Source: an uncultured Anaerolineales bacterium (GTDB lineage: Bacteria > Chloroflexota > Anaerolineae > B4-G1 > SLSP01). From it: DNA of 55,350 bases. Under the pieces are notes generated by a model. That model made no database searches. It was given only the letters and a program-made list of their open reading frames with translations, and was not told where the DNA came from. The DNA lies in contig CAYMAQ010000003.1 of NCBI GenBank assembly GCA_964388385.1, positions 1 through 55,350 on the forward strand. The letters are read 5' to 3'. Position 1 is the first letter of the stretch, and every line of letters begins with the position of its first letter. The translations under genes and the position numbers were made by a program. Below are positions 17,392 to 51,122 of this stretch, piece by piece.

Positions 17392-18582
17392 TCACACCCG
17401 TCGTCCCACCTTACTCACAGCCTTGCGGCTGAACCGCAGCCCCAGACCCTGCTGCTCGGCGAACGCCTGGAACACGCGGTAGAATCGCTCGCGGTCCCGG
17501 AGTGTAATCACCGCCACAGCATCCGCGGTCTCCACCGCGTAGGGATAGCCGTTCCCCACCACACACTCGGCACGCACGATATCCACCACCCGATCCAGAA
17601 TCCCCACGTCCAACACCCACCGCGGGATGTCCAGCCGCACGGGCGGACGATCCGCCGTTGTCTGCAGGTAGACGAGAACGACGCGATCGTAGTATTTACG
17701 GCCCCCGACCGGCTCCAGGTCGTCGTTGCGCGCGCAGACCCATGCCGTGGAACGATCGCCCCATTGCATATGCCGGGAGCGCAAAATCGCCCCGTCGCTG
17801 ATCCGATCCGAGATCGACCGTCCGGTCAAAGCATCGAGCATTGAAACCAGATCGTTGGCATAGCTTGTGTCCACGTAGCCCACCAGCGGAATTCCGATAT
17901 CCTCCGAGGCATCCAACAACGAGAGGATAGCGCCAACGTACAATCGCTGTCGCGCGGGCTGCATCTGTTGCGCAAAGGAGAGAATCAGAGACCCATCGAA
18001 GAAACAGACCGGCCTTTCATCCAGGGGAGAGCCGCGGTAGCCCTCCATCAGGTCAATCAATCGCTCACATTCACCGGTGAACCGCCGTAAGTTAACCCGC
18101 CAATCGGGAAAGTCCATATTCCCAGCGTCCTCGTCGCTCAACTCATCCGGCGCGAGAACCTCGAAGACCAGATCCTTCACATAATCTGCACCCGGATCGT
18201 GGGGATTGATAAACCAGCCGATCTGGACGGCCCCCACCGGGATAGAAAGCGTCTTCGTGGGCGTAATCTGCGAGCCATCGACCGCAACGGTAGGGATGCC
18301 CAGTAACGTCTCCCGCGCCCAATCGCGGGCCTGCTGGTGGCTCTCCCAATCGTGAGCGAAGGGTACGACCAGGTCGGGATACGCATCGTGCTCGAAGGTA
18401 GGCTTGGCGCCCGGCCATACGACACCTGCCAGCGCAGCCTCGATCTCCTCACAACTCAACCCCTCCAAGGTTTCCAGAGCCGACTGATAGGCCAAGAGTA
18501 CATCCCGGATGCGAGCTTCGTACCCGGAAAAACGATCCGCTTTGGCGGCCAACGCCGCCAGTACCCGCTGCTGATGGAACAT
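17392..18582 (-). CDS. NurA-like nuclease (putative)
   Basis: 396 aa. Two DGS motifs typical of the NurA domain (TVAVDGSQI and CFFDGSLIL). The start lies 4 nt after the sbcC stop. Confidence 0.55.
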   Translation of the reverse strand: MFHQQRVLAALAAKADRFSGYEARIRDVLLAYQSALETLEGLSCEEIEAALAGVVWPGAKPTFEHDAYPDLVVPFAHDWESHQQARDWARETLLGIPTVAVDGSQITPTKTLSIPVGAVQIGWFINPHDPGADYVKDLVFEVLAPDELSDEDAGNMDFPDWRVNLRRFTGECERLIDLMEGYRGSPLDERPVCFFDGSLILSFAQQMQPARQRLYVGAILSLLDASEDIGIPLVGYVDTSYANDLVSMLDALTGRSISDRISDGAILRSRHMQWGDRSTAWVCARNDDLEPVGGRKYYDRVVLVYLQTTADRPPVRLDIPRWVLDVGILDRVVDIVRAECVVGNGYPYAVETADAVAVITLRDRERFYRVFQAFAEQQGLGLRFSRKAVSKVGRRV

Positions 18583-18585
18583 AGA

Positions 18586-21500: not shown

Positions 21501-21771
21501 CGCTGCGGCTGCCACACCGTCTAACGATTTCATATACACGACCATCACCCGCCTCCACGGCCACAGTAATCGTTGCGGTCTTCTCTCCTCTGCGGACGAA
21601 GTCCTCCTGGGTGACTGCCAGATGATCGAAAAGCACAAAGCCGATCGCCTCCAGGAGCGTGCTTTTACCTGAACCGTTCTGCCCGCAGATGGCATTCGTG
21701 CCGGACTTGAACGCGACGTCGGCCCGTTTGTAGCTCTTAACGTTTTCCAGTTCGACGCTTACGATCCGCAT
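18586..21771 (-). CDS. sbcC: SbcC/Rad50-family ATPase with zinc hook
   Basis: MRIVSVELENVKSY...GQNGSGKST Walker A, very long coiled coil with a central CPVC hook, C-terminal LSGGE signature and Walker B (FFDEPT). I chose the ATG at 21771 (2 nt after the sbcD stop) over the ORF-track start at 21825. Confidence 0.85.
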   Translation of the reverse strand: MRIVSVELENVKSYKRADVAFKSGTNAICGQNGSGKSTLLEAIGFVLFDHLAVTQEDFVRRGEKTATITVAVEAGDGRVYEIVRRCGSRSAFYVHDPELVQRMTDGKAETMLWLQDFLGMEPNADLATLFRDAVGVPQGLLTAAFLETPSRRKDVFNPLLRVDEYEQAWSGLREPQRWLELQVTEQEKLIAGLQGQVVALPGARHRAALLSAEIEKEEQQREKQAAELEDVTARLTIFDEAKSELDALNQVVSQAEVEIKALKRRQEDVSKALAEAEAARDIIEETQEGFRVYESTRHTLTALESDRAERDRLQENLRALEKDLALTSQRLADLNVQLEAIEAAQKRAVQLEPKVERQTELEEALDKARLQADRLENARRSFEDEERRLAQLESQMERLEIEIQEREAVERELSKLREDLADVEADREDLAAEVSSKETEHARLNSERMAAEVRLREMRAALAHAEQSLEALRERESEINEGLKSRREVVQALSEQRGDLERLGAKIETITADQAAHRTTFEQTEARIAALKTGAEEEAVCPVCGQTLTPGHREELLATYGSQLARCREALDDLKSERDALERKRRDTLAEIRDLEVDLQTLPRSKEAEELVERIIVQKTDVESHRTSVEETRGTVSRLASQCEDIKSAAAELQEALDIKTELRTALQDEVVARDSRLGALPRPAELDQLHERITVQASVVEAQREVVTDLSDAPDRVVQLNGQLESLGDPRRDYQRARDTAERRPDVIHARDEVESRLRASKTQVSTLEDELEAYSDVDARIEAERSALNQYEEDHRRYVAHLRQSEALEDYRETYRSVKSDLSEAKKALEATRDAQEGVRAAYDPEAHATASDMRGDLRESLAALKERVQQRRGRLAEIEVEIDRLQALASEMEDAENERNTLQALQNLLGYLRGVLREAGPVITRRLVDVISLRADRLYREIMQDYTTRLRWTEDYDIILKQSGRERSFQQLSGGEQMAAALAVRLALLQEISTVGVAFFDEPTANLDDRRRDNLAEQILGIQGFNQLFVISHDDTFEQDTDHVIRVRKVDGVSHVEV

Positions 21772-21772
21772 C

Positions 21773-23062
21773 TTAGGCACCCTCCTGCATGTCAGCATCC
21801 TTTGGGGTACCGTTGACTTCCTCACGGAGGTGACGGAGATGATCTACCACGGCCTCCGGCGCACCTCCTGCCAGCACGAGATCCTTGAGTCGTCGAGCAC
21901 CTGCCGTCCACGCTTCCGCATCTACGCGATACCGTTGGTCGCGCTCGATGAGCTGTTGGATGACCGAATGCTCCAGCTCTGTCCGGCTGGTCTCTGCTTC
22001 AACGTCGATTTCGAAATCAGCAGGTGTGACCTGACTCTGTACGCGAACCGTGAGGGGCTTCCAGGCCCTTTCTACCCTGGCTTGAATCTTGTTCAGATCG
22101 AGCTCGTACCGGTTAAAGGGAAGAATCCCTATCAGTAACACCTCCACGACCGGAGCAGGCTCAGGCTGAATCTCCGCATCCTTTCGAGCGATGAGAATAT
22201 CCACCTGGTCGTAGACGGCTTGAGGCGAGGTAAGCGCATCAACCTCCACCGTCAGACGGTGAAAGGGGCGCCGCTCAGGCACAAAACGTTGATGATGATG
22301 AGGAGGATCAACCCCTGGATTGACGTCGACAAAGTAGGCACCCCGATTGGGCCACGTCATCGCCTCCTGGATGCTGCAAGCCTCAGGAGCTCCCGGATTG
22401 AAGATCCAATTATCGATTTGATAGGGTTTATGAATGTGCCCCAGGGCGACGTAATCGACGACATCCCGAAGCGACGCAAGGTCGCTCATTCGGAGGCTTC
22501 CCATATGAGCCAGTTGACCTTCCAGGCCGGCGTGCATCATCAAAATTGTATATTTCACACCGGAAGCATCTACAGAGGGTAACGCCTCGGTAAACGTGGT
22601 TAGGACCCTGGAGGTCGAAGCGCCATAATACTTGATCCCATAGACACGCAAACCCTCCACGACGTCCGTATAGCTTCCCCCGCCCTCACCGTGGGGTGTC
22701 AGCACGGCTCGCCCGTCTTCAAAAGCGGGGTTGAGCAACCGCAGATATCCCATCGCGTCGAGGAACTCGAGCCATGAATACTGGTCGCGGTAATAGGCTT
22801 TCTCGTGATTCCCTTCGACCGCCAGGACCGGTACCCCCGCATCGCGCAGTGTTTCAAATCCAGCGACCGCGACCCGCATCGCCAGGGGATTGACGGTACG
22901 CTTGTGAAAGAGATCACCGGCTAGCAGGACGAAATCGACCTCACGCCTCAAGGCTTCACCAATGAGATTGATAAACACTTTGCTAAAGTCGTCAAATCGC
23001 TCGCCCAGTCCGTACTGCTGGTAACCCAGATGAATGTCAGCAATGTGCAAAAATCGCGTCAT
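21773..23062 (-). CDS. sbcD: SbcD/Mre11-family nuclease
   Basis: FLHIADIHLG, DFVLLAGDLFH and GNHE phosphoesterase motifs. ATG at 23062 preceded by GAGGAG (the ORF-track TTG start is at 23074). Confidence 0.85.
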   Translation of the reverse strand: MTRFLHIADIHLGYQQYGLGERFDDFSKVFINLIGEALRREVDFVLLAGDLFHKRTVNPLAMRVAVAGFETLRDAGVPVLAVEGNHEKAYYRDQYSWLEFLDAMGYLRLLNPAFEDGRAVLTPHGEGGGSYTDVVEGLRVYGIKYYGASTSRVLTTFTEALPSVDASGVKYTILMMHAGLEGQLAHMGSLRMSDLASLRDVVDYVALGHIHKPYQIDNWIFNPGAPEACSIQEAMTWPNRGAYFVDVNPGVDPPHHHQRFVPERRPFHRLTVEVDALTSPQAVYDQVDILIARKDAEIQPEPAPVVEVLLIGILPFNRYELDLNKIQARVERAWKPLTVRVQSQVTPADFEIDVEAETSRTELEHSVIQQLIERDQRYRVDAEAWTAGARRLKDLVLAGGAPEAVVDHLRHLREEVNGTPKDADMQEGA

Positions 23063-23328
23063 CTCACTCCTCAAAAATCCCGCTCCAATTGAACACTACC
23101 ACGTCAAGGATAATCCGACCCAAGCCGGCATAATCTCTGACAGGCCTATGGGATCGATTAGCCAACGCTTAACGGTCTCGTAACAAACAATTTCGTTGCA
23201 GAAACTTGTTTTCTTAACACATTTGTTATGAACACAACTGACACGGACCCGTAACTTCGATTTGAGAGGATCATAGTATAGTAAGAATGCGTTCATTTCA
23301 ACGACCTGGACTTGAAAAGGGGGCATGT

Positions 23329-37906: not shown

Positions 37907-39868
37907 ATGCACGAACTCTACAAGCCGCGGTTCCGACCGCTGCCGTTAGGGAGCGTCCATCCCACGGGTTGGCTTAAAAATCAGCTGCGCATCCAGGCCG
38001 AGGGGATAAGTGGGCATTTGGATGAGTTCTGGCCCGATGTCCGGGACAGCCAATGGTTCGAGGGAGATGCCGAAGCCTGGGAGCGCGCGCCTTACTGGCT
38101 CGATGGAATCATCCCGCTGGCTTACACCCTTGACGATCCGGCCCTCAAAGAGAAGGTCAGACGATACATGGACCTCATCATCGAGCACCAACAAGATGAC
38201 GGTTGGCTGGGCCCGCGGACGATGATTGCGGCGTCGGGACAATCCGCGCAGCCCCGTTATGACCTCTGGGGACAGATACTCGCCACCAAGGTGCTGATGC
38301 AGTATACAGAAGCTACGGGGGACGAGCGGGGGACGACCGCGCTGGCGCGCCTGCTTCGTGGCATCGATCGAACGCTGGATCGAACACCGCTCTTCAACTG
38401 GGGGCAGTTCCGCTGGTTCGAAGCCCTGCTGGCAATCTTTTGGCTGTACGAAAAGCAGGGAGGCATTTGGCTGCTTGATCTGGCGGCAAAGCTCCACGCC
38501 CAGGGCTTTGACTGGGGAGCTTTCTTCTCATCGCCCGCCGGGTGGCCCGCGGCTGCCCCTACTCCGAAGGGACGCTGGAACTATATGAGCCACGTCGTCA
38601 ACAATGCGATGGCGCCGAAGGCGCACGCGCTTTGGTGGCGCCTCAGCGGAGACGAACAGGATCGAGCAGCGGTCTATGAGATACTCAAAAAGCTCCATTC
38701 TCACCATGGGATGGTCACTGGCGTGGTCACTGGGGACGAATGCCTGGTTGGCAAGAACCCCATCCATGGAACCGAGCTTTGTTCGGTCGTGGAACTGGCT
38801 TACTCGCTTGAGGTTCTCGTCTCGATCTTGGGTGATCCGATCTTCGCCGATCAATTGGAGAGGGTGATTTTCAACGCGCTGCCGGCGACCTTCTCACCGG
38901 ATATGTGGTCTCACCAGTACGACCAACAGGTCAATCAGGTGGAATGCAGCATTCGCGATGACCGCATCTGGAGCACCAACGGTCCCGAGTCCAACATCTT
39001 CGGCGTAGAGCCAAACTACGGCTGCTGTACGGCCAATCTGAGCCAGGGATGGCCTAAGTTCGCCGCCCATCTCTGGATGGTTATGGAGGGCGTGGGGAGG
39101 GAGAACGAAGGTCTGGCAGCCACGGCCTACGCACCTTCGACTGCCGAGACGATGATTCAGGGGGTTCCCGTAAGCGCAGAGATCGACACCGAGTACCCAT
39201 TCCGCGACGAAATACGTGTCCACGTCGACACCAAAACCCCGGTACGTTTCCCACTTCTACTGCGGGTTCCGGAATGGAGCAAAGATCCTATAATCCGACG
39301 AGCGGATGGCTCGGAAACCCCGTTGAATCCGGGTTCGTTCCATCGGATCGAACGCACGTGGAAGGGAAAATCGGAACTCATTCTCCGCTTCCCAATGCCG
39401 ACCTACTATTGGCGCGGATTCAGAAACGCAACCGCGGTGCATCGGGGACCGTTGGTATACGCACTCAAAGTCGGGGAGCGATGGGAGCGAGTTCACGAAG
39501 ACGAGCCCTACCGCGAGTTACCTCACGGCGACTGGGAGGTCTACCCGACCACACCTTGGAACTACGCTTTGGTACCGGATGAGACCACCGCAAAGCTTGA
39601 CCTGATATTCGAGACCCATCCAATGGGTGACTGTCCCTTCTCTCCTGAGGGCGCACCGGTCACAGCGCGGGTTAAAGCACGCCGGTTGCCCGATTGGCAA
39701 ATCGAGCACGGATCGACCGACGAGACCCCAATGAGCCCGGTCTCCTCGGAAGAGCCGGCGGAGACAGTAACCCTCATCCCTTACGGCTGCACGAACTTGC
39801 GCATTACCGAGTTCCCAACCACGGATATCGTCATCAAGGACAGGAAAGGAGCGCCTGATGGATCGTGA
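37907..39868 (+). CDS. Glycoside hydrolase family 127-like (beta-L-arabinofuranosidase/DUF1680)
   Basis: 653 aa. The N-terminal GWLKNQL pattern and EPNYGCCTANLSQGWPKF cysteine motif are typical of GH127. Confidence 0.7.
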   Translation: MHELYKPRFRPLPLGSVHPTGWLKNQLRIQAEGISGHLDEFWPDVRDSQWFEGDAEAWERAPYWLDGIIPLAYTLDDPALKEKVRRYMDLIIEHQQDDGWLGPRTMIAASGQSAQPRYDLWGQILATKVLMQYTEATGDERGTTALARLLRGIDRTLDRTPLFNWGQFRWFEALLAIFWLYEKQGGIWLLDLAAKLHAQGFDWGAFFSSPAGWPAAAPTPKGRWNYMSHVVNNAMAPKAHALWWRLSGDEQDRAAVYEILKKLHSHHGMVTGVVTGDECLVGKNPIHGTELCSVVELAYSLEVLVSILGDPIFADQLERVIFNALPATFSPDMWSHQYDQQVNQVECSIRDDRIWSTNGPESNIFGVEPNYGCCTANLSQGWPKFAAHLWMVMEGVGRENEGLAATAYAPSTAETMIQGVPVSAEIDTEYPFRDEIRVHVDTKTPVRFPLLLRVPEWSKDPIIRRADGSETPLNPGSFHRIERTWKGKSELILRFPMPTYYWRGFRNATAVHRGPLVYALKVGERWERVHEDEPYRELPHGDWEVYPTTPWNYALVPDETTAKLDLIFETHPMGDCPFSPEGAPVTARVKARRLPDWQIEHGSTDETPMSPVSSEEPAETVTLIPYGCTNLRITEFPTTDIVIKDRKGAPDGS

Positions 39869-41069
39869 AACCTGGCGAGAAACGGTGGGGATGTTGCCGG
39901 TCTTCGATACCCACACGCATCTGAATAAGCCCGGCGTTCCGATTCCAGCTCAGAGTTTCTGGGATATCGCTCACTATTTCTGGTTTCAACAGGAGCTGAG
40001 GTCGGTGGGGTATCCCTCCAACGCACCCGAGCTTCCCGAAGAGACCCGGATCGATGCCTTCGTAGAAGCCTTTAACGCCGTACGTAACACGGCGTGGCAT
40101 CTCATCGTGCGTCGCATCTGCAAAAACCTCTACGATGTGCCGCTGACCGATCAGAAGGGACGCGCTACGCCGGACCACGTTCGGGACGTCGATGCTGCCA
40201 TCCGGGCATCTTCGCAGCAGCCAGGATGGTCCAAGTCGGTGATCGACCGACTTGGGATCCGACGTATCACCGTGAACAACATTGCCGACAGCAAATTTCC
40301 CAGGTTACCCGGAGTCGGCGTCTCGGTACCCACTTGGGACGAGCTACAGACGTGGTCTGACAAACTTATGAAATCTACACGTCCGGAGTGGGTACTCAAG
40401 GAAGCGCAAGCAGCTATCGAGGCCACAATCTCTCGCCTCAAGGATCAGGGAATCCGAGGCATGCGGGTGGATGCTGACATCTTCGAAGCCCAGGGGAAAG
40501 CAGCCGTCAATCTGCACAATCCGCCGCACACTACGCCGCTTGAGCAGTGGCAGGCAGAGGCACTCCTCATCCACCGCCTCCTCGATCTCCTTGGTGATTA
40601 CGGTATGTTTGCGCAGTTCTTCCTTGGCATTGAGCGGGACGTCACCCCCCATACCGCGATGGCGGTCAACGATCCAAGGCGAATCATCAATCTCTATCCT
40701 CTTTTCGAAGTCCATCCTTGCGACTTCGAGTTGGTGGTAGGTGCACCGCAGAACAATATGGACACCGCCCAGGCCGCCCGGATTTATCCGAACGTCTATG
40801 CCGGCGGGCTCTGGTGGTACAATTTCCGTAACAGCACATACCGACAGACGATGCAAGTACGTTTGGAAGCGGTGCCGGCAGGCAAAAGCGCCCTGGTCGC
40901 GTCGGACGCTCGGTGCATCGAATGGTGCTATGGGAAAATTCTCCTGGTCAAGCGGTTACTGGCAGACTTCCTCTATGATCAGATGGACCGAGGATGGATT
41001 AATGAGACGGATGCGCTGTGGGTTGCGCGCGAATGGCTCCACGATGCGGCGGCTCGCCGGTATATCTGA
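39858..41069 (+). CDS. Amidohydrolase-fold protein (uronate-isomerase-like)
   Basis: FDTHTHL metal-binding start of a TIM-barrel amidohydrolase. 11-nt overlap with the GH127 gene. The precise family is uncertain. Confidence 0.5.
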   Translation: MDRETWRETVGMLPVFDTHTHLNKPGVPIPAQSFWDIAHYFWFQQELRSVGYPSNAPELPEETRIDAFVEAFNAVRNTAWHLIVRRICKNLYDVPLTDQKGRATPDHVRDVDAAIRASSQQPGWSKSVIDRLGIRRITVNNIADSKFPRLPGVGVSVPTWDELQTWSDKLMKSTRPEWVLKEAQAAIEATISRLKDQGIRGMRVDADIFEAQGKAAVNLHNPPHTTPLEQWQAEALLIHRLLDLLGDYGMFAQFFLGIERDVTPHTAMAVNDPRRIINLYPLFEVHPCDFELVVGAPQNNMDTAQAARIYPNVYAGGLWWYNFRNSTYRQTMQVRLEAVPAGKSALVASDARCIEWCYGKILLVKRLLADFLYDQMDRGWINETDALWVAREWLHDAAARRYI

Positions 41070-41081
41070 ATCCTGCAGCTT

Positions 41082-41165
41082 GAGATCCAGACATAAAACA
41101 CCGAGCTTTTCACAATGGTCGCAGAAACGCGGAAAAGCCTGAACGAGCGATGATCCAATCCACAC
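41082..41165. repeat. Intergenic repeat family, copy E (hairpin 41105-41111 / 41132-41138)
   Basis: GAGATCCAGACATAAAACAC (18 of 20 identical to copy A), then GCTTTTC[loop]GAAAAGC, then GATGATCCAATCCACAC. Confidence 0.8.
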
Positions 41166-41216
41166 CCGGGTGCGGTGCATACCGGCGATACGCCCGGTAT
41201 CATGGGCAGATCAATG

Positions 41217-42278
41217 TCAGTGCGGATGCTGTGTCTCTGACTCACCGGTGACCACGGCCCGAAAAAGATGGCACTCCCACAGCCTTTGTGCGGCATCCAG
41301 GTCGATGACCTCCCAGGGCATGCAGAGGACCTTAAACGTCTCGGGATCGTAGGCAGCGTGACGGGCAATCCATCGTCCAGGGGGTGGGCCTGCCAGTGTC
41401 CAGAGCGGTTCCAGATTCATCTCCACCTTCTGAAACAACGCCGGATGCGCTAACAGGGTCCTCAACAGCCCGAAGAGTCCAGGCGGGCCCTCCGGCAGCG
41501 GCGGATCGACGAGGGGAACCAGTGTGTCAATAGGAACCGGCTTGTCCGTATATGCAAACAATCCACGCGCTAAGGTTACGACCTGGGTTTCACTCAGCGA
41601 AGGCGAGAGCGCCCGCAGATACCACAAAGCGTGAAGATGCAGAAACCGATCATCCGCCAACAAAGCGGAGAGCACCTGCTCGGCGAGTGTGTCGCCATAA
41701 CGCCACAGCACATAGTCGACCTGTTGTTCCTCCTCATCACTTTTGAAAAGAGCATCGAGGTCGCCCGTTGAGACCTGTCTGCCAACGGCATCGGTCGGTT
41801 CACCCTTACGATACGTGCGCAGTTCCGAAAGCCCATCGATCGATACGGTGAACACCTCGCCCTCGACGCGGGTGATGACCCCGATCTGTGGGACGTACGT
41901 TCGCCCGAGGGCCGGACTGGGTATAGCAAAAATGGCGCGATCTCCGGCTCCCCACGTCTCGGCCGGATCCCAGAATCGGACGGATGGCGTATCCCTTCGG
42001 ACGCGGACTGAGGCGTCACCCGTCAGTTGCGGACCTGATCGAAGTCGAGAGCGAATGAGCTCCCGAACCAGGGCTGTGAGCGTACATGCCTCTTTTTCTG
42101 AACGGATGAACACGGCAAGGCGCGAAAGGTCCGGTCGGGTCACACTGAAGAATTGAGTCCAATAGCGGTGATAGAAGAGCGTATTGTGCCGAAAACGACC
42201 TAACGCCATCTTCCGGGAAGGCCTGCTGTCCCGCTCTTCCGGCCTAAGAGCATCGAGCCCAGGACTGAAAGGCCACAT
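41217..42278 (-). CDS. Partner protein S1 of the methyltransferase-like module (unknown family)
   Basis: 353 aa counted from the ATG at 42278, which is 10 nt after the P1 stop and preceded by GAGGAG. The ORF-track TTG start at 42317 would overlap P1 by 29 nt. Paralog of 45726..46685: shared TLTAL.R..IR.RLR.G, VRFWDP..W..GD.A.F, W(Y/F)LR(A/S)L, Q(V/L)VTLAR, YDP.T..V(L/I)C. Confidence 0.7.
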   Translation of the reverse strand: MWPFSPGLDALRPEERDSRPSRKMALGRFRHNTLFYHRYWTQFFSVTRPDLSRLAVFIRSEKEACTLTALVRELIRSRLRSGPQLTGDASVRVRRDTPSVRFWDPAETWGAGDRAIFAIPSPALGRTYVPQIGVITRVEGEVFTVSIDGLSELRTYRKGEPTDAVGRQVSTGDLDALFKSDEEEQQVDYVLWRYGDTLAEQVLSALLADDRFLHLHALWYLRALSPSLSETQVVTLARGLFAYTDKPVPIDTLVPLVDPPLPEGPPGLFGLLRTLLAHPALFQKVEMNLEPLWTLAGPPPGRWIARHAAYDPETFKVLCMPWEVIDLDAAQRLWECHLFRAVVTGESETQHPH

Positions 42279-42288
42279 ATCTCCTCGC

Positions 42289-45200
42289 CTAGACACTATC
42301 AACCGGGAGAGATCCAACGCCCCGCTCCGCCACCATTGACCTATGGGTGAGAACGCAAGACGTTTTACCGCCCCGTTTTGCCGTCAGTTTTCGCGCCATC
42401 TTCACATAAACCGCATAGGGATCGCGAAAGGGCTGATCTTCCGAACCTGGCACGAATCGAGCGGCCCTGCTTAGTTCTCGTTCAGAGATCTTGGGCACCT
42501 GACCGATCACGGCATCGAATCCCGGATCATCGGCCCAGGTTCGATGCTCGAGGTCGATAAAAGCATCGATAAACATCAACGACCAATGAAAACAAGCCCC
42601 GGAAGCCTGAGAGCGCGCCAACAGCGCTTGCATTTCATCATCGAGAACGGCCTCGCCTTGGAGAACCTGCAGCAAAGAGCCCCACCACCGATCGAGCAAG
42701 TTCTTGGCTTCACCGTCACCTAAGACAGCTTGAACGTGCACGTCCAAATACTGTCGATAGGGACGTAAAATCTGCTCGGCGCGCTCAAATTGCTTCATAC
42801 TCCAGCGGACGTCCAAAGCCGAGGTATTGACCCGATCGACAACGGAATACATCGTACTCGCACCCTCGAATAACCGTGCCATCTCCAGAGGCGCTTGCTC
42901 CAGGGCGCGAAGTGAATCCAGGTCCGTACCGATCAAACTGTTTCCCATTCGAAGCCGGTGATTGAAAAAGACAAAAGGCGCACCCTTCACAAAGGTCCTT
43001 AGCCAAAGGCCGACCTGCGTCAGGTCGATCGCGACCGGGTCGCGGTCCACTCCGTAGATGCAGTGCTGGGCGATAAGCCGCCGCATAACAGCCACATCAC
43101 TAAGGAAGTATGCCTCGATGTCGATACCTTGTCGACCAAGTTCACCCGCCACGTCATGCCGAACCCGCTCGAATAGACGATGCAGCGGGTTCCAACGCCA
43201 CGGCACGTCGGGATGTTCATCGTGATAGGCTTGCATCTGCTGGATGACGCCATCGGTAATCACATCCAACGCACTGAGTAAAAACGTCCCGGTTCCCATC
43301 GCGGGGTCCAAGACCCGCAGCCCAAGCAGCGCATCACAGGCCGCACGGGAAACCGTTTCGAGTGACGCCTGCACCTCAGCGCGATCCCTTGCATCAAGCG
43401 TCCGCTGCAGCCTGCGGCGCAAGGTGACCACCCGATCCATCGCCCTGGCAAACTGCGCACCGCGATGCTCGAGTAAGGGCTTAAGAACCTGAGCGGCGAC
43501 ATCCGTAGCCACATAGTCCGGGATGCCCACTCGCCCGTGACCGCTGGCATCAGAGGCTGAATCGATGAACATAACCTCACCGCTGGCAGCGTCGATCACC
43601 CGGAGATCGATATCCAGCAGAGGCGCGAGAACAGCGCTCAGTTCGTATGCACTGAAACTCGCGTAATCGACATCGCGCTGAAGCGTATCCAATACCTCTG
43701 CTAGCACAGCGTCGCTCAGGCGATGTTCGGCGATAAACGCATGCTCGGAATAAGCCTCGGGATCAAAGAAGACGGGGCCGTACTGCGGAAGATTTTTCAA
43801 CGCGTCCCCGGCGTTCACACGATGCAGCATTGAGAGCAGAATGTCATAGTGCGGCGTCGTATAGAGTCCGACGCTTGGCGGGATACCTCCCTCAACGCAG
43901 ACATCCACCCAAGACAGCAAAGACTTGAGACTGTGCGGTCGGTATTCCGGGTCATCAACAGGCAGAAGGAACCTGGCTTCGGCCACAAAGAGGAATAGAA
44001 TCCGGGCCAAAAGGGACAAACTGGCGCGCTTAATGAACTGCAGGCTTTCCGCATCCTCGTCGGAGATATCAAGTCGCCGATTGCGATAGGCCACAAATCC
44101 GCCGGCGATTGCCGGAAAGACCTTTTGGGCAATACACGTGCGCAGGTAGACCCGACTCTCCTGTTTTCGCGCGGGTGAGGACTCATAGAGGCGATCGAGA
44201 AAACTCCCACCCTCCCCGTCAACGACAAAAGCATCGCGCCTAAAGAGCATCCACCATTGACGAAGTAACACCCACTGAGAAGGGGTCAGGGAGTCGCACT
44301 CGCTCAACCGCTCAAACAGAGGACCGAGGTCCACTTCATGAAATTCCGTAACGATACTGTTCGCTCGGCGGGTGAACAGCCGCCACTTTCTTCCATTGGT
44401 CAGGATCCCCCACGACACATGATGGCGCATTAACGCGCGAACGATCTGATAGCTGGGCGTTGACATTTCATCCTTCAGACTATCCGGATGCCGCCACCAG
44501 CGGGACTCGGGGGACGAGTGTGCATCCAGTGAGCCTGACCAAGCTGCGGTCTGAACTAGAGCAAGGCCCCAGCCGGAAACGGAGCACGGACCGCCTCGCT
44601 GCGTATAGAGAGCCGCACAAGCGGCTTGATCTCGACAGAGTATGTGCTGCTTCGGCTGAGCCGTACGCGATCGCCGGGCTGGCACCTGGGAATCCAGAAC
44701 CGATAACGGGACCGAAGACCACCCTAATGCCGTCAACAAGGGCTGAACCAGCGCGGTTTCGGTCCTCTGGTCATCCCATTCATGCCCCTGGCTTCGCGCT
44801 CGAGACCACAGGGCGCGAATAGCCTTATAAATGATATTGAGATCCGCATCCCAATCCGGGTCGCGTTTCAGCTTACGTTGCAGATATTGATTGGGAAAAA
44901 GAGCACCGGGCTGGAGCAAAACACCCTCGCGGGACGTCTGGTCCTCAGAGAGCTTGGTAAGCCGGTGAATGGGAATCTGCCCCTGATCGAACAGGGAATC
45001 CAACAATATCGCCAGCGCAGCATCCAGTACGTCTGGACTCATCGGGGGGAAGAATTCGCGCAAACATCCGTACTCCCCCCCCTGATGGTAAAGCATAATA
45101 AACCGGGGGTCGGCAGCTAGGGACTGACGGACTCGCGGAAGAAAGGATGCTTCTTGAACTTCGAAGAGTGTATCGACAACCTGCTCACTGACCATCGCAG

Positions 45201-45534
45201 GAGAAAGGGTAGTAGGGGCGCGATCGATTTCAGCAGCGACACGGACATTTTCGCCTCCTTTCAACCTGAGAGTTAGGATTTTGAAGTTTCCCTGGACGAC
45301 ATTTTGGGCGTTTTGAGCGTTTACGACATCGCCCACGAGGCCGTTGAATCGCAAGCGCGTACCAGGAGGATATTGCCCGCCGGGTGCGAAGACAGGCGTC
45401 CCATTGTCAGTTGTCAAATAAGATCGTATCGCTTCGCGGGCCAGGTTCGCCAATGACACCGGGGCTTCCTGTTCGCGAATCAAATCAGCAAGTCGATCGA
45501 GATTGATATCTTGAATGGGAATCCGTTGAGACAC
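42289..45534 (-). CDS. P1: Eco57I/PglX-like (COG1002-type) gamma-class N6-adenine DNA methyltransferase homolog; catalytic tetrapeptide degenerate, no C-terminal TRD
   Basis: 1081 aa, GTG start after GGAGG. Ordered motifs: ALVQPLLTALGW; WGILTNGRKWRLF (44374-44412); LFLFVAEARFLLP; SAM motif I VLDPAMGTGTFL (43279-43314); IYGVDRDPVAIDL (43021-43059); RMGNSLIG; FHWSLMF...GFDAVIGQVPK (42490-42519). Confidence 0.8.
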   Translation of the reverse strand: MSQRIPIQDINLDRLADLIREQEAPVSLANLAREAIRSYLTTDNGTPVFAPGGQYPPGTRLRFNGLVGDVVNAQNAQNVVQGNFKILTLRLKGGENVRVAAEIDRAPTTLSPAMVSEQVVDTLFEVQEASFLPRVRQSLAADPRFIMLYHQGGEYGCLREFFPPMSPDVLDAALAILLDSLFDQGQIPIHRLTKLSEDQTSREGVLLQPGALFPNQYLQRKLKRDPDWDADLNIIYKAIRALWSRARSQGHEWDDQRTETALVQPLLTALGWSSVPLSVLDSQVPARRSRTAQPKQHILCRDQAACAALYTQRGGPCSVSGWGLALVQTAAWSGSLDAHSSPESRWWRHPDSLKDEMSTPSYQIVRALMRHHVSWGILTNGRKWRLFTRRANSIVTEFHEVDLGPLFERLSECDSLTPSQWVLLRQWWMLFRRDAFVVDGEGGSFLDRLYESSPARKQESRVYLRTCIAQKVFPAIAGGFVAYRNRRLDISDEDAESLQFIKRASLSLLARILFLFVAEARFLLPVDDPEYRPHSLKSLLSWVDVCVEGGIPPSVGLYTTPHYDILLSMLHRVNAGDALKNLPQYGPVFFDPEAYSEHAFIAEHRLSDAVLAEVLDTLQRDVDYASFSAYELSAVLAPLLDIDLRVIDAASGEVMFIDSASDASGHGRVGIPDYVATDVAAQVLKPLLEHRGAQFARAMDRVVTLRRRLQRTLDARDRAEVQASLETVSRAACDALLGLRVLDPAMGTGTFLLSALDVITDGVIQQMQAYHDEHPDVPWRWNPLHRLFERVRHDVAGELGRQGIDIEAYFLSDVAVMRRLIAQHCIYGVDRDPVAIDLTQVGLWLRTFVKGAPFVFFNHRLRMGNSLIGTDLDSLRALEQAPLEMARLFEGASTMYSVVDRVNTSALDVRWSMKQFERAEQILRPYRQYLDVHVQAVLGDGEAKNLLDRWWGSLLQVLQGEAVLDDEMQALLARSQASGACFHWSLMFIDAFIDLEHRTWADDPGFDAVIGQVPKISERELSRAARFVPGSEDQPFRDPYAVYVKMARKLTAKRGGKTSCVLTHRSMVAERGVGSLPVDSV

Positions 45535-45725
45535 CTATCCTCCAAAGATGGTAAAATAGATCGTAGACCGGAGGTCCATCATGCTGAGAGCGCACCCAGA
45601 AGTCCAAACAACTGGGCACTCTGCCCTTAGTATAGGGTGGAATGAATCAACGGGGATTAAATTCAGGTTACGGGGCGGTTACATTCAGCTAGAAGTAAAC
45701 GATCTCGAATCCCAAACAGAATCCA

Positions 45726-46685
45726 TCAAGGCGATCCATAGACTGCGGTCGCTAGCAGGCCCAACTGCCAGAGCAGCTCGACCTGGTTTGAGTTCAGATG
45801 ATCGCCGTTTTCGCAGATGACCTCATACGTCCGGGGATCGTAAACCGCGAACTTGGCCTCGTAATTCCCAGGGGGTGGGGATACGAGAACCCAACGAGTA
45901 TAGCGCCCGGCTTCAACGCGAGAGAATAGGCCGGGACGCTCTGACATAGCCAAGCCAAACCCAAACGATGTAGGCGGATCGTCAGCCTCGGTTAACGGCA
46001 TCAGACTGAGAAGTTCAGATAGCCGCACGCCGTCCGATGACTCGATTAGCAGCGTGCGCGCCAGAGTCACAAGCTGTGCTTCGTTGGGATACTTGACCAG
46101 CGATCGCAGAAACCAACGCCCTTCCCACTCAACAAATCGCCCATCCGAGCGCAGGGCAGCCAGAAGCCCTCCTATAATGTGAGGACCGTGCTGGAAAAGC
46201 ATATGATCGATCCGGGCTCGTTCGCTTCGAGATTGTCCGAGGCGGGCAATATAACGGTCTAAGGAGGCGCGCCATCTCGTGATCTCCGCATTGTCATGAC
46301 GGGCGGGCATTCCCCACATACGGGGCATCTCCTCCCCATCAATCTGAGCGATTAACGCCGTATCCATAACCCTTGCAACTTGACCGGCACGCGGCTCCTG
46401 TCTCAGTACACCGTGCCGCGTGTAGGTAACCGGAAAGACGGCCCAATCCCCGGGATGCCAGGCCTTCAAAGGGTCCCAGAACCGAACCACTCCCTCATCA
46501 GGAATCGGAATGAGATGACCCGACTCTTGCCCATATCGCAGACGGCCCCGAATCCAACGCCTTGCCAGGGCAGTGAGTGTGAATGCCTCACCTGCCTTGC
46601 GCATACGTCGAACGAAACGTTCGAGATCCACCTCAAAGACTCGAAATATCGTCCGATTCCGGGGAGACCTCAACGGAATGTTCAT
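45726..46685 (-). CDS. Partner protein S2 of the methyltransferase-like module (unknown family)
   Basis: 319 aa. Its ATG overlaps the P2 stop as ATGA (46682-46685). Paralog of S1. Confidence 0.75.
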   Translation of the reverse strand: MNIPLRSPRNRTIFRVFEVDLERFVRRMRKAGEAFTLTALARRWIRGRLRYGQESGHLIPIPDEGVVRFWDPLKAWHPGDWAVFPVTYTRHGVLRQEPRAGQVARVMDTALIAQIDGEEMPRMWGMPARHDNAEITRWRASLDRYIARLGQSRSERARIDHMLFQHGPHIIGGLLAALRSDGRFVEWEGRWFLRSLVKYPNEAQLVTLARTLLIESSDGVRLSELLSLMPLTEADDPPTSFGFGLAMSERPGLFSRVEAGRYTRWVLVSPPPGNYEAKFAVYDPRTYEVICENGDHLNSNQVELLWQLGLLATAVYGSP

Positions 46686-49600
46686 CGTCCTATGCTCCTG
46701 AGATGCTCGGGGGTCATCACCAGAGCGATACGCCCACCGGGAGAACGTACGAGCTGGTGCGCTAGTCTCTCAAAGAGGCCTGAACGATCCGCTGCCGATG
46801 GATGCACATCATCCGATCTCGAAACGGACAGAGACCCCACATGACGACCATGCTCAGGTCCAATCGTTGGAGGGCTGCCGATGACGACGTCAAATCCCGG
46901 GCGCACACCGTTCTCTGCGTGCCTGGGATCGTGGAAAACCTCCGGGAATACCAGATCCCAATGGATGAAGCCCTCTTGGATGCTCAGTTCCTCAGCACGG
47001 ATCAAGGCCCGATTCCACGCCGTCGGCCTTGATTCAACCGGTTGGTCGAGGAACCGCACAACATCAGACGCTCTTTGCAACAATCGAGTGACGTCCTCAT
47101 TTCCAACAAACTGGCTTAACCAGAGATCAAGAGCTGCCCTCTCCAGAGGCAGGGACTCTCTAGGGTCATCCAACCGTGAAATCCGTGCCCCCAATGAGGA
47201 AACCCCACCCATCATATCAAGATCGTGCTTTGATGGGAAGTCCAAATCCTGCAGACGTCCACCGAGAAGACTGTTACCCCGGCACAGGTGGCTCCCAAAT
47301 TGCATCTCCCCCCCTCCTCTCGCAAAGGCCCACAGGGAGAGATTAGCTTTTGCCAGGCTCACCGCGATCGGATCGATATCGACGCCATAGATGCACATCT
47401 TGGCGACCCGAGAGGCAATGAGGGCCAAGTCGTCGGGCCAACCGGGACGGAGGTTTAAGCCCAGACTCGACATTCGATGGCGAACGCGGTGCCGATCCGC
47501 AACCAGAGCCCGCAAAATCGGGTTCCAGGATTCAGGAAAATCGGGATGGGTTCGACAATAAGTTTGATACTGCGCAACCGCCCAATCGGTAATGACGTCC
47601 GCCGCTGCAATGAGAAAATGACCAGCCCCCATAGCCGGATCCAGGATCCGCACTCCCAGCAGCGCTTGCTCGGCAAGGTCTTCCGCTTTCGCAATGCGGG
47701 CCTGGACCGCAGGAGACTCACGATCCAAACGCCCTTCGCTCGTGCTCTGCTGCAGACGCATCAACTGATCCATGGCCTTCTCAAAATCCAGCGCCCGGGC
47801 CGAAAGAATCGGTCCTAACGCATCTTCGACAGTGGAGATAACCACGTAATCAGCCGTCGACTTTTCCGCGATTGCCCTTGGCTCGGTATGATTATCGAAC
47901 CAGGTGACTTCCCCGAGTGCGGCGTCGACGACCCACAATGCATTCTGTAGGAGTTCCCCACCGACCATACAGAGATGGCGCAAATCCATAGCAGCAAACA
48001 CGCTCTCGACCTCGCCCTCCACTGACAAAGTGTGTAGAACTTGGGCGATCACGTGGTCGCTCAATCGATGCCGTTCCAAAAAGGCGTGACTGGGCTCGGT
48101 TGCACCGAACAAGCCTCCCTCAATGCGTAAAAGCCCCAGCTCTGGAGCCCCATGGTCGAGTCGACGGAAAAGAGAACACACAGCATCATAACGCGGCGTG
48201 TTCGCTATCGAGGCGCTGAGCGGCGCACCACGGCGAATCATGTGCTCAGCCCAGTGTGCCAACGTCGTTAAACTCGAGGCGCGATAAGCCGCGTTATCCA
48301 TAGGAAGCAGGCGGCGAGTCTCTGCGTAGAGAACAACCAGTAATTTATAGACCATCGACAAACTCGCCCGTCCCACTTCCTGAAGAGAAGCGTCATTCTC
48401 TTCTCGTACAGAGAGTACTTGGTGACGATAGGCGACAAATCCCCCCGCGATCTTCGGCAGCACACGGTCCAAAACCAGATCCCGCAGTCGCTTTACCTTT
48501 CGCCTCGTCCTGCTCGCGAACGTTTCCTGGAGTATTTCGATGAGCGCTCGCCCCTCCGGAGTGCGCACATAGGTATCCCTTCGACACAACAACCACCAGC
48601 GTTGAAAAGCCCTCCACGCTTCTTGGGAAATTTCCCCCGTGGATGCCATCTGATCGATAACCGGGGTCAGGTCAACCTCATAAAACTCCGCGGCGGTGCT
48701 GCCGATGTCGGGATTTCCCCATCGGCGACTGTACAAACGCCATCGCCTTCCATCAGTGACCCCACCCCATCGCACGTCACCCAACGTCAAATCGGCGATA
48801 GTGTTCAGGGCAAGTTCGTCAAACTCGTGAGAAGCCTCTCCAGGATCCGTATTGAAAGAAAGCCCGGTGTTCAAAACCATGGGCGCAGACAGATTATCGG
48901 TTTTTCCATCCTGGAGAGAGTGCCGCAGGGCTTGCTGCTGCTCATCACTGATGCACAGAGCCCACCGGGCATAAACATCTCCACGATTTCGATCGCAACC
49001 TGTGGAATCGGGATCCGTGATTTTTTGCAGACGGAGAGGTTGCCAGCCCAAAGCATCGAGTAGGGGTTGGACAAAGCACGTCTGGATGTCTTCCGGGAGG
49101 CACGCACTCTCCGAGTTCGACGCTGGCTGCCACAGTGAGCAAAACGTAGACAGCATAGACCGAGCCCTTTTCTCCCAATCCAGATGCTCGGACCATAGTT
49201 CCTCGAGGCTATCATCGGGGAGGAAATGAAGCGGACGGATCTGCGGAACCGTTGCGAGATGCGACATAGAATCCGGAGGGACTGCAGGAGACGCGGGGAA
49301 CGTGTCGGGATCGAGGTCGCGAATATCCGAAAGGTTGAGCCAGGGTGCCTCTTCCCGCAGGGCGTCTCCGTGCGTAGCAAGCACACCGTGGACCAGAGAG
49401 TCTGGAACCGCAAAACTCAGATCTCCGTCAGGATTTGGCGTCGAAAATGGCGCCGGGGATTGCGTCGCAACACACCGCCGAGATCCATCCCGCATCTCGA
49501 GATCAACGACAGCGAACCCACCTTGCCTGGGGTTCCCCCCCTCACGAACCTCCACAACGCGGGCCACATCCCCATCGATACCCACCCAATCACCAGCTTC

Positions 49601-49750
49601 AAACCGGCTTTCAGGTTGGAAAGGTCGGAGATTGCCTGGAATAGGAGCGTGCTGACGCACGTGATCCCACAGGATCTGTCGAACCGTTTTGAGAGGATCG
49701 GTTGCAGGATCGCATCGCTGTAAAGCTTGTATCAGGAACTCGGAATCCAT
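46682..49750 (-). CDS. P2: Eco57I/PglX-like (COG1002-type) N6-adenine DNA methyltransferase homolog; motif IV is SPPT, no C-terminal TRD
   Basis: 1022 aa. FVQPLLDALGW; WGGVTDGRRWRLY; LVVLYAETRRLLP; motif I ILDPAMGAGHFL (47612-47647); IYGVDIDPIAVSL; CRGNSLLG; FIHWDLVFPEVF...GFDVVIGSPPT (SPPT at 46865-46876). Colinear with P1. Confidence 0.8.
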   Translation of the reverse strand: MDSEFLIQALQRCDPATDPLKTVRQILWDHVRQHAPIPGNLRPFQPESRFEAGDWVGIDGDVARVVEVREGGNPRQGGFAVVDLEMRDGSRRCVATQSPAPFSTPNPDGDLSFAVPDSLVHGVLATHGDALREEAPWLNLSDIRDLDPDTFPASPAVPPDSMSHLATVPQIRPLHFLPDDSLEELWSEHLDWEKRARSMLSTFCSLWQPASNSESACLPEDIQTCFVQPLLDALGWQPLRLQKITDPDSTGCDRNRGDVYARWALCISDEQQQALRHSLQDGKTDNLSAPMVLNTGLSFNTDPGEASHEFDELALNTIADLTLGDVRWGGVTDGRRWRLYSRRWGNPDIGSTAAEFYEVDLTPVIDQMASTGEISQEAWRAFQRWWLLCRRDTYVRTPEGRALIEILQETFASRTRRKVKRLRDLVLDRVLPKIAGGFVAYRHQVLSVREENDASLQEVGRASLSMVYKLLVVLYAETRRLLPMDNAAYRASSLTTLAHWAEHMIRRGAPLSASIANTPRYDAVCSLFRRLDHGAPELGLLRIEGGLFGATEPSHAFLERHRLSDHVIAQVLHTLSVEGEVESVFAAMDLRHLCMVGGELLQNALWVVDAALGEVTWFDNHTEPRAIAEKSTADYVVISTVEDALGPILSARALDFEKAMDQLMRLQQSTSEGRLDRESPAVQARIAKAEDLAEQALLGVRILDPAMGAGHFLIAAADVITDWAVAQYQTYCRTHPDFPESWNPILRALVADRHRVRHRMSSLGLNLRPGWPDDLALIASRVAKMCIYGVDIDPIAVSLAKANLSLWAFARGGGEMQFGSHLCRGNSLLGGRLQDLDFPSKHDLDMMGGVSSLGARISRLDDPRESLPLERAALDLWLSQFVGNEDVTRLLQRASDVVRFLDQPVESRPTAWNRALIRAEELSIQEGFIHWDLVFPEVFHDPRHAENGVRPGFDVVIGSPPTIGPEHGRHVGSLSVSRSDDVHPSAADRSGLFERLAHQLVRSPGGRIALVMTPEHLRSIGR

Positions 49751-49837
49751 CGTAACCCTATGGGATTGAGAGAAGAAGGAAACCTGCTTGAATGACGACT
49801 GCCATCAGGATCGGGAACCCACACTTCGTTGAGTGCG

Positions 49838-49866
49838 AGTATACCATTGCTTATCAAAGCCGCAAA
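49838..49866 (-). promoter_or_regulatory. Candidate extended -10 promoter for the P2-S2(-P1-S1) genes
   Basis: On the minus strand: TTTGCG, 17-nt spacer, TATACT with an upstream TG (TGGTATACT, the same extended -10 as the tRNA promoter). About 85 nt upstream of the P2 ATG. Confidence 0.35.
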
Positions 49867-49919
49867 TTTGGGTGGCCCGGAGTCGGTCTCGTAGACAAAA
49901 AGATATCCAGCAGACGGAG

Positions 49920-51122
49920 TTAATCTTCCGTTTCTGCGCTCTGCCGTGTTTCCTCCTCGGGGGGCTTCGCAAAACGTCGCTCCTCAAAGCTGATCGTCCC
50001 GTTATTGACGTGAATGATCGCCATGGATTTGATGGGATTGTGCATTTCATCGAAAGTCAGCCACCCAGATACCGTATCAAAAGAGGACGTCTCGAGGATC
50101 TGGCTCACACCGTAAGGATCAGGATAACCTGCAGCCTCAACAGCCGCAAAGAGCACGTTAGCCGTGTCGTAAGCCAGCGTAGCCAATGTATCCGGGGGAA
50201 CAAGATAGCGGGTCTCATACAGGGAAGACCATGTTGCGACGACCGATCGCGGCTCCGAAACGAAATAATGAACCGGAAAATAGCTGTCGTCAACGGCGCT
50301 CACGTCCAGGACGGGGGACTCCCATCCATCGCTGCCCACAATCGGTTGGAACATTCCAAAGGTCCGCGCCTGAGGCACCAATCTGTTGATCACAGAATAA
50401 TAACCGGGCAGATAAAGTACGTCAGGATCGGCTTCACGTATCGGCTCCAAGACATCATAGAACTGCGAGGCATTCTGATCGTAAGTCTCTCGTGCGATCA
50501 CCTCGCCACCCTCGCCCTCGAAAGCTCCCCTGAAAGCAGCAACCAGCGCCGAGCCATAGCCCCCTTGTTCCGCATAGAGAATACCAGCCGTCTCCGCGCC
50601 CAACGTGTCCGCGGCGAACTTGGCAGCGATGACACCCTGGTCGGGATCGGTGACCGGTATCCTGAAGACCAAGGGGCGTAAGGAGCCCGCGGCATCCTCG
50701 GTCAAATCGGCATCCACTGAGGCGGGACTTATCTGCAGAACCCCGGCCTCTGAGGCAATTTGTGCGACACCTTCGGAGGCGTCCGCGCAAACAGCGCCGA
50801 TAATAAACAACATCCCCTCGTCATTGATGACCGACTGCGCCGCAGATCGAGCGGTCTGATAATCACATGCGCTGTCTTCCAGGACAACCCGTACCGGCTG
50901 GCCTAATACTCCCCCACGCTCGTTCTGAGCTTCAACCGCGAGCAAAATCCCATTTCGCACCGACTGTCCGAGACTGCCGTATGGATCGCCGAAAGGTGCA
51001 ATGACCGCAAACTCGAAAGCACTGGTTTGCGGCTCGCCCCCAAACAATCCGCAGGCAGACAGAGTCCATACAAATAGACAGAGAACCAGCACAGCGACCC
51101 GTGTAGAGCATCTCGAGTGCAA
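49920..51122 (-). CDS. Branched-chain amino-acid ABC transporter substrate-binding lipoprotein (LivJ/K-like)
   Basis: Periplasmic-binding-protein type I pattern. I chose the TTG start at 51122, 6 nt after GGGAGG, which gives the lipoprotein signal MHSRCSTRVAVLVLCLFVWTLSAC. The ORF-track start at 51182 abuts a terminator. Confidence 0.75.
   Translation of the reverse strand: MHSRCSTRVAVLVLCLFVWTLSACGLFGGEPQTSAFEFAVIAPFGDPYGSLGQSVRNGILLAVEAQNERGGVLGQPVRVVLEDSACDYQTARSAAQSVINDEGMLFIIGAVCADASEGVAQIASEAGVLQISPASVDADLTEDAAGSLRPLVFRIPVTDPDQGVIAAKFAADTLGAETAGILYAEQGGYGSALVAAFRGAFEGEGGEVIARETYDQNASQFYDVLEPIREADPDVLYLPGYYSVINRLVPQARTFGMFQPIVGSDGWESPVLDVSAVDDSYFPVHYFVSEPRSVVATWSSLYETRYLVPPDTLATLAYDTANVLFAAVEAAGYPDPYGVSQILETSSFDTVSGWLTFDEMHNPIKSMAIIHVNNGTISFEERRFAKPPEEETRQSAETED

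Follow-up and report, generated by a model that had tools for sequence, protein, structure and literature searches.

Restriction-modification (R-M) enzymes are normally mobile, are gained and lost fast, and are defined by their catalytic motifs. In methyltransferases of the M.TaqI type, the flipped adenine is sandwiched between the Tyr of motif IV and the Phe of motif VIII. In BrxX, the change Y511A in the NPPY motif abolished DNA binding, methylation and defense (bioRxiv 10.1101/2024.04.12.589305), and TspGWI N473A is deficient in both methylation and cleavage (PMC3968444). The stretch of DNA analyzed here (the window, 55,350 nt, the forward strand of contig CAYMAQ010000003.1 from an uncultured Anaerolineales bacterium) contains a gene, P2 (46682-49750, minus strand, ATG start, 1022 amino acids [aa]), whose product belongs with these enzymes and has been kept despite losing the nuclease triad, the catalytic residues of motif IV, part of the methyltransferase fold and the target recognition domain (TRD). 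From its sequence, P2 is probably a catalytically dead, selectively kept descendant of a single-chain type IIG / DrmMI-like R-M enzyme, with a non-catalytic role. It is one of a unit of four genes on the same strand: P2, a partner, the paralog P1, and a second partner.

Motif IV in P2 and its relatives

The translation of P2 (window 46682-49750, minus strand) contains FIHWDLVFPEVFHDPRHAENGVRPGFDVVIGSPPT. On the plus strand, positions 46865-46876 read cgttggagggct; in reverse complement, agc cct cca acg, they give S-P-P-T at residues 959-962, as the preliminary description of this stretch had reported; the longer span that it marked, 46865-46894, corresponds to FDVVIGSPPT. In a 67-sequence alignment, this tetrapeptide falls in the exact column of GNPP[YWF] in full-length relatives. 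The aromatic residue is indeed absent, and so is the Asn. The two boxes leading up to the motif, which had been called canonical, do fit the consensus of the full-length relatives: FPEVF (residues 935-939, 46934-46948, minus strand) fits their EFPEVF, with F935 invariant in 67/67 sequences, and GFDVVIG (residues 952-958, 46877-46897, minus strand), strand beta4 leading into motif IV, fits GFDaVIG, with a modeled strand at 955-958. The Pfam Eco57I profile (PF07669) scores 32.3 bits on P2 against a cut-off of 25.3, matching profile positions 2-88 of 171, and PADLOC reports partial matches to DrmMI (E 2.9e-25) and type IIG R-M (E 1.2e-22).

Six near-identical copies of P2 from JGI, ENA and Logan sources (P0156-P0161) all carry SPPT, with 0-6 other residue differences and no frameshift or internal stop (four of the six are 1022 aa long, the other two being 789-aa calls), so SPPT is not a sequencing artifact. 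Isolated mutation is ruled out together with sequencing error, since the defect is common to these six population copies and to 14 orthologs.

Relatives were gathered by homology searches and a scan of GTDB species genomes. The long ones, of about 1300-1800 aa, come from cyanobacteria, Poribacteria, Chloroflexota, haloarchaea and others, and have Eco57I, N6_Mtase and MmeI_Mtase domains and usually TaqI_C; every one read at motif IV (more than 30 full-length proteins) has NPP[YWF]. The short ones, of about 1000-1130 aa, form two clades, named here after P2 and P1, and, among named genomes, are found only in Anaerolineae/Anaerolineales metagenome-assembled genomes (MAGs). At motif IV, the 14 P2-position orthologs read SPPT (two, the window and L085), GPPT (two, P0002 and P0003), SPPA (six, including P0005/L004, P0008/L002, L005, L007 and L008), SPPS (one, L009), RPPS (two, P0100 and P0101) and NPPL (one, L010). 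An aromatic residue at the fourth position is found in 0/14, and Asn at the first in 1/14, so the degenerate motif is fixed in the P2 clade rather than sporadic. NPPY, which most orthologs might have carried had P2 been an isolated mutant, is thus in none of them. P960 and P961 are invariant in the clade, while position 959 varies among S, G, R and N and position 962 among T, A, S and L.

P1 (42289-45534, minus strand, 1081 aa), a paralog of P2 with 29 % identity over the full length, reads QVPK at motif IV. Distant lineages of the P1 clade have NPPW (9/29 aligned proteins), NPPH, SPPW/Y, TPPW, APPW, APPR/L and SPPL, and Q[VI]Px is limited to the sub-lineage of the window's P1 (P0054-P0059 among the 29, plus L059). 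Since distant P1 orthologs still have NPPW, SPPW or TPPW, the loss of motif IV in P1 is recent, and judging from these distributions the loss in P2 is ancient and ancestral to its clade. The proposed graded decay, with P2 less decayed than P1, therefore has the order reversed: the P2 loss predates the split of the sampled species, and QVPK is confined to one P1 sub-lineage.

A truncated fold and a degenerate nuclease

The preliminary description regarded the rest of the Eco57I-type block as well preserved, which is true no farther than motif IV and a single helix-strand unit; beta6/beta7, motif VIII, the TRD and the nuclease triad are gone. The last fold element is strand beta5, GGRIALVMTP (residues 1005-1014, 46709-46738, minus strand; model strand 1007-1010, last helix 1014-1019), and the chain stops about 8-10 residues past it, leaving 60 residues after motif IV. 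In the 67-sequence alignment both short clades stop 41-68 residues after motif IV, about 10 past the strand GGRxAxVxxP, whereas the long relatives run 408-594 residues beyond motif IV, by way of a "...LRxFL...ixDfG..vF..v....ilv" segment and the TRD. Profile alignment to CamA (8cxz) shows the segment missing from P2 to be beta6, the motif VIII Phe and beta7; neither this Phe nor the motif IV Tyr is present in P2. PF12950, the TaqI_C-like TRD, has no match in P2 by Pfam, while the long relatives do match it.

An AlphaFold2 model of P2 (predicted local distance difference test score [pLDDT] 85.6, predicted template modeling score [pTM] 0.82) has strands at 702-704, 787-791, 822-824, 955-958 and 1007-1010, corresponding to beta1-beta5, then one short helix and the end of the chain. 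Foldseek searches with it recover BrxX/PglX (E 4e-4 to 1.5e-3), DrdV, MmeI, BsaXI and CamA. An active gamma-class N6-adenine methyltransferase would be expected to have a complete catalytic fold, a TRD, and motif IV as (D/N/S)-P-P-(Y/F/W), and P2 has none of the three. Judged by its motifs and modeled fold, P2 is very probably not an amino-methyltransferase, and to this extent the earlier suggestion that it is probably inactive stands.

Toward the N-terminus is a degenerate PD-(D/E)xK nuclease-like core (about residues 255-341, 48728-48988, minus strand), closing with a conserved TDGRRWRLY. The relevant columns read RPDYALF...AIAEAKYW (D...ExK) in long relatives, ARWALC...VLNTGLSF in P2 and QHILC...ALVQTAAW in P1. 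With RWA...NTG in the PDY...EAK columns, P2 does not have the nuclease triad of type IIG enzymes; D...ExK is absent from both short clades, while TNGRxWRLY downstream of the triad stays conserved. As far as these residues tell, the N-terminal nuclease-type domain of P2 is dead. Ahead of it is an N-terminal extension (about residues 1-180, 49211-49750, minus strand) of helices and an SH3/KOW-like barrel, in which NPRQG is invariant. Full-length relatives do not have this extension, with just 44-77 residues ahead of the point where it ends in P2. Its strands, residues 55-97, match the EF-P/eIF5A N-domain with Foldseek probabilities of 0.96-1.0 and E-values of 0.2-2, not significant search-wide.

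The SAM pocket and selection on P2

The motifs of the S-adenosylmethionine (SAM) pocket are in place, all on the minus strand. Motif I, the SAM-binding loop, is ILDPAMGAG (residues 702-710, 47621-47647), with D704, P705 and G710 invariant in 67 sequences; motif II is YGVDIDP (residues 788-794, 47369-47389), keeping the acidic D791, which is invariant in a seven-sequence alignment of the P2 clade; and motif III, placed by alignment, is GNSL (residues 825-828, 47267-47278). In motif I, the motif II acidic residue and motif III, P2 therefore has what an active Eco57I-type methyltransferase would have. Invariant in its clade are motif I as DPAxGxG (with two exceptions), YGVD, GNSL, the HW..FP.VF box, GFD and PP, and about 100 columns do not vary in the seven-sequence alignment, whole motifs among them. 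P1 orthologs show other combinations: most of those with NPPW (among P0060-P0086) are without the motif II Asp (FGVA/FGVS), and the window's P1 keeps motif II and has QVPK. Which cofactor or catalytic elements have been lost thus differs between the paralogs and from lineage to lineage, as would be expected if selection for catalysis ended with the loss of the C-terminal half.

Ratios of nonsynonymous to synonymous substitution rates (dN/dS, omega), a check that had been proposed for P2, range overall from 0.19 to 0.33; the gene is selected, and is not a pseudogene. For the L086-L087 pair, codon alignment gave an omega of 0.22 (bootstrap 0.17-0.27) at a dS of 0.31, and values for two deeper pairs, the window against L085 and L003 against L004, were 0.19-0.24 (about 0.19 each). 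By region, omega was lowest in motifs I-III (0.10-0.13) and was 0.27-0.31 from motif IV to the C-terminus, with the loosest constraint in the N-terminal extension and nuclease-like region. The flanking GH127 and hyp403 genes have omegas of 0.08-0.11 (for one flank pair the NG86 value was used in place of YN00). P2 is thus functional as a gene, and purifying selection on it, though relaxed, is clear. Its catalytic residues are lost in all orthologs while the open reading frame (ORF) stays under purifying selection, the pattern of a pseudo-enzyme, with one exception, L059, considered below.

The partner proteins

Immediately downstream of P2 is its partner (45726-46685, minus strand, 319 aa), whose start codon overlaps the P2 stop codon (ATGA), with an AGGAG 11 nt upstream. 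The same 4-nt overlap is repeated in the coordinates of L001-L004 and L086, and from this start/stop overlap the two genes appear to be translationally coupled. The partner of P1 (41217-42317, minus strand, 366 aa as listed) is a paralog of the P2 partner with 32 % identity. Neither has a Pfam, NCBIfam or PADLOC match.

The first half of the partner is homologous to the N-terminal extension of P1 and P2 (hhalign probability 88.6 %, E 2.6e-6), and the partner profile also matches the N-termini of two long proteins, P0012 (E 1.7e-13) and P0013. P0012 (1785 aa; L089:595-11387, Chloroflexi MAG JACNHM010000171.1) has a partner-like N-terminal domain fused to an Eco57I-type methyltransferase with NPPY, and is encoded directly after an 1810-aa RNase T-DEAD-DinG-RecQ helicase; this may be an ancestral or a parallel context for the partner module.

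The partner was also considered as a split-off C-terminal half or TRD, and this was rejected. The profile of partners matches no C-terminal region of the long relatives, so P2 and its partner are not a split enzyme; hhalign against the C-terminal 336-570 residues of long relatives gave a probability of 0.14 %, and nothing in the modeled partner resembles a methyltransferase or TRD-like fold. That model (AlphaFold2, pLDDT 79.9) consists of helices, a P2-like barrel and a helix-helix-helix-hairpin unit, with weak fold matches to winged-helix proteins (Fur, ArsR/SmtB, forkhead, LOTUS) and to KOW/PWWP-like ones, none of them significant (best Foldseek E 0.066, Fur-type). A nucleic-acid-binding role is plausible from the modeled fold. 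An exhaustive profile search of 1.84 billion clusters found only 173 representatives of the partner family (P0146-P0311) at E <= 1e-3. Two distant members in the 520-740 aa range have a HARE-HTH domain (P0260, P0270), and coiled coils are present in two proteins of about 1300 aa (P0223, P0296).

Synteny and history of the cassette

At least 10 Anaerolineae assemblies have the four genes in one and the same chromosomal position, between a branched-chain amino-acid (BCAA) ABC transporter and a hypothetical protein followed by a GH127 glycosidase. Read from the transporter, the series P2, partner, P1, partner, (hyp403), GH127 is complete in L003, L005, L008, L010 and L059 (where P2 is degraded); L001/L011, L002, L004/L006, L009 and L085-L087 are truncated by contig ends, and agree as far as they reach. 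Across syntenic loci the flanking proteins are 53-92 % identical, P1 37-42 % and P2 31-34 %. A mobile defense island was ruled out, given the strict synteny with housekeeping flanks and a composition profile without a break. Scans for promoters and terminators over 41000-50200 gave counts equal to the shuffled expectation.

Neighbor joining on 825 well-aligned columns recovers the clades of P1 and P2, and the two combined, as monophyletic in 100/100 bootstraps each. The sister of the combined group, whose branches are much longer, is a tight cluster of full-length enzymes (P0006-11, P0088-96). Tree and synteny together indicate one truncation and exaptation, one tandem duplication of the gene pair, and vertical descent thereafter. 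Neofunctionalization after duplication, as first suggested, is a poor fit: both paralogs are cut short, have lost the TRD as well as the triad, and have gained the N-terminal extension. Since these changes are shared and P1 and P2 are jointly monophyletic, the sequences suggest that function most likely changed before the duplication.

Some neighboring genes may be mentioned. The hypothetical protein hyp403 (39858-41069, plus strand, 403 aa, no Pfam match) is 62-80 % identical among the syntenic loci where it occurs, lying there between the cassette and GH127; L001, L002 and L003 do not have it, and it is probably not a cassette member. Farther away, the product of 13807-17226 (plus strand) combines BTAD, AAA_16 (STAND-type ATPase) and TPR domains in 1139 aa and is probably a large transcriptional regulator with a role in signal transduction. 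It is followed on the minus strand (17392-23074) by a DNA end-resection cluster of archaeal style, here in a bacterial genome. Its genes encode, in a row, a NurA nuclease (17392-18582), a zinc-hook ATPase of the structural maintenance of chromosomes (SMC) type, similar to Rad50/SbcC (18586-21825), and an Mre11-like phosphoesterase (21773-23074).

Origin and possible role of P2

The history that best accommodates these observations would begin with an enzyme, in an ancestor of this Anaerolineae group, that lost everything past beta5 (beta6/beta7, the motif VIII Phe and the TRD) as well as its PD-(D/E)xK nuclease residues. It would have gained the N-terminal module of helices and SH3/KOW-like barrel, and its gene would have come to be associated with that of a small protein paralogous to this module, the partner. 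Duplication of the gene pair would have given P2 and its partner, and P1 and its partner, all four staying at one chromosomal site. In P2, the motif IV Asn that hydrogen-bonds the target amino group and the aromatic residue that stacks on the flipped base are replaced; among orthologs these two positions drift between small residues, and the Pro-Pro and motifs I-III stay fixed. The present protein most likely neither methylates nor cuts DNA. It is probably a scaffold, which may still bind SAM, is translated in coupling with its partner, and probably acts together with the P1 pair in a nucleic-acid-associated complex. Pointers to such a subunit are the conserved half with the SAM pocket, the coupling to a probably DNA-binding partner, and the P1 module beside it. 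More tentatively, the whole cassette could be a domesticated, chromosomally fixed, R-M-derived complex, no longer cutting or methylating, of two pseudo-methyltransferases and two winged-helix/KOW-like partners, serving as a SAM-binding, DNA-associated reader or regulator.

Several points weigh against a dead but maintained enzyme of this kind. One is L059 (Anaerolineae bacterium F14_17, DAOTTS010000058.1, 9992-12919), the closest GTDB representative, in which P2 is frameshifted near residue 329 and is without residues 498-797. The partner of P2 there is without its first 66 residues; the P1 pair, at 62 % identity, is undamaged, and the flanks are 75-92 % identical to the window. Assembly artifact aside, this suggests that one lineage at least can do without the P2 pair. 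The omega of P2 is higher than that of its flanks by a factor of two to three, and the cassette is fast-evolving. In the P2-clade proteins P0100 and P0101, from Anaerolineae MAGs and with RPPS at motif IV, motif I reads DPATRGG and DPAVRGG instead of DPAMGxG; on this branch SAM binding may also be eroding, which weakens the case for its universal retention. The winged-helix and KOW resemblances of the partner are below significance. Finally, the sequence states, truncation, conservation, synteny, selection and single origin are direct results, and we infer the inactivity of P2 from its motifs and modeled fold; its binding of SAM, its contacts with the partner and P1, and its association with DNA are putative.

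Three other explanations need to be weighed against a maintained pseudo-enzyme. One is that the partner or P1 supplies the missing part of the fold and the DNA recognition, P2 being the non-catalytic half of a heteromer with P1 as its active subunit, as in METTL3-METTL14. The genes are adjacent, P2 and its partner appear translationally coupled, their summed length (1022 aa and 319 aa) is close to that of full-length relatives (1350 aa), and in distant lineages a P1 with NPPW and a P2 with SPPA share a locus. However, the partner, with its 0.14 % hhalign probability, is not the lost C-terminus, its homologs being the N-terminal extension and the P0012 N-terminus; the P1 chain breaks off where that of P2 does; most of the NPPW P1 orthologs are without the motif II acidic residue (FGVA/FGVS); and the QVPK of the window's P1 means that no subunit encoded there has an intact motif IV. 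Such complementation in trans is unlikely.

Altered chemistry, the other possibility raised in the preliminary description, would have the conserved SAM pocket methylate something other than the exocyclic amino group of a flipped base, or carry out some other SAM-dependent reaction. It would account for motifs I, II and III and the motif IV Pro-Pro being invariant or nearly so in the P2 clade, and for motifs I-III being the most constrained part of the protein, and Ser does occur at the first position of motif IV in N4-cytosine methyltransferases. But the first and fourth positions vary among orthologs (S/G/R/N and T/A/S/L), which is not the pattern of a new catalytic solution, the fold is without the beta6/beta7 and motif VIII that form part of the M.TaqI-type substrate pocket and has no TRD, and two members of the clade also change motif I. 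With no computational support for it, a change of chemistry in P2 seems quite unlikely. A very unlikely alternative is that P2 is a functionless relic, decaying slowly and kept open by linkage or chance. It is the fastest-evolving gene of the locus (31-34 % identity, against 53-85 % in the flanks), its omega is two to three times theirs, and it is a pseudogene in L059. Yet apart from L059 its copies are open over all contig-held sequence in 13 orthologs down to 31 % identity, an omega of 0.22 with an upper bootstrap value of 0.27 was obtained at unsaturated dS, about 100 columns are invariant among seven clade members, and the six near-identical copies, 0-6 substitutions apart, have no frameshift or internal stop.

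If the cassette is indeed a domesticated reader or regulator, it would be a previously undescribed kind of exapted defense protein. P2, duplicated, held at a single site and under purifying selection across species at about 31 % P2 identity, would be a clean natural case of a defense enzyme turned non-catalytic, and its partner represents a small, unannotated protein family. Automatic labels carried by relatives, such as [quoted passage not shown], would wrongly suggest an active methyltransferase in the case of P2.

Comparison with described systems

No description of the P2 family was found in the literature searched. The top PADLOC profile is DrmMI of class 1 DISARM (defense island system associated with restriction-modification; PDLC02643), with E-values of 2.9e-25 for P2 and 1.7e-44 for P1. 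The match to P2 is partial, in three stretches of which the best covers residues 694-830, and the catalytic motif is absent. None of drmA, drmB, drmC or drmD was found near the cassette, among the ORFs of 13.8-55.3 kb and the called genes of syntenic loci. Close to the cassette there are no genes for DISARM or bacteriophage exclusion (BREX), nor for helicases or nucleases. This lack of accessory genes, with scores far under the family cut-offs, rules out either defense system.

The closest solved fold to P2 is that of BREX PglX/BrxX (9ewz, 8zek, 8q56 and 8c45; Foldseek E 4e-4 to 1.5e-3). BrxX is also partner-dependent, having no methyltransferase activity alone in vitro (bioRxiv 10.1101/2024.04.12.589305). 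It differs in having NPPY, a nine-stranded sheet, a TRD and a C-terminal domain, all of which P2 lacks; NCBIfam PglX profiles score only 14-27 bits on P2 (best 27.1) against cut-offs of 400-900, and there are no brx genes.

In function, P2 is best compared with paralog subunits that have lost their activity within methyltransferase complexes: METTL14 has EPPL beside the DPPW of METTL3, and DNMT3L is another such subunit. The cassette likewise holds a pair of paralogs in which one has a degenerate motif IV and is nonetheless conserved, and in some lineages P1 with NPPW stands beside P2 with SPPA. The families are unrelated, however (MT-A70 against Eco57I type), P1 and P2 are both truncated, both members of the window's pair are without the motif, and a P1-P2 heterodimer is hypothetical.

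The nearest full-length relatives of P2 (P0006-P0011, 34-35 % identity) have a type IIG-like architecture. With type IIG / IIL enzymes (MmeI, BpuSI, DrdV and TspGWI; PF07669 and PF12950), P2 shares the order of an N-terminal PD-(D/E)xK-type fold, a helical connector and a gamma-class methyltransferase, as well as motifs I, II and III and the FPEVF/GFDxVIG lead-in to motif IV. It differs from them in having neither the nuclease triad, nor the N or aromatic residue of motif IV, nor beta6/beta7, motif VIII and the TRD. To the shared plan it adds an N-terminal module and a dedicated partner gene, at a fixed chromosomal site rather than in a mobile defense island.

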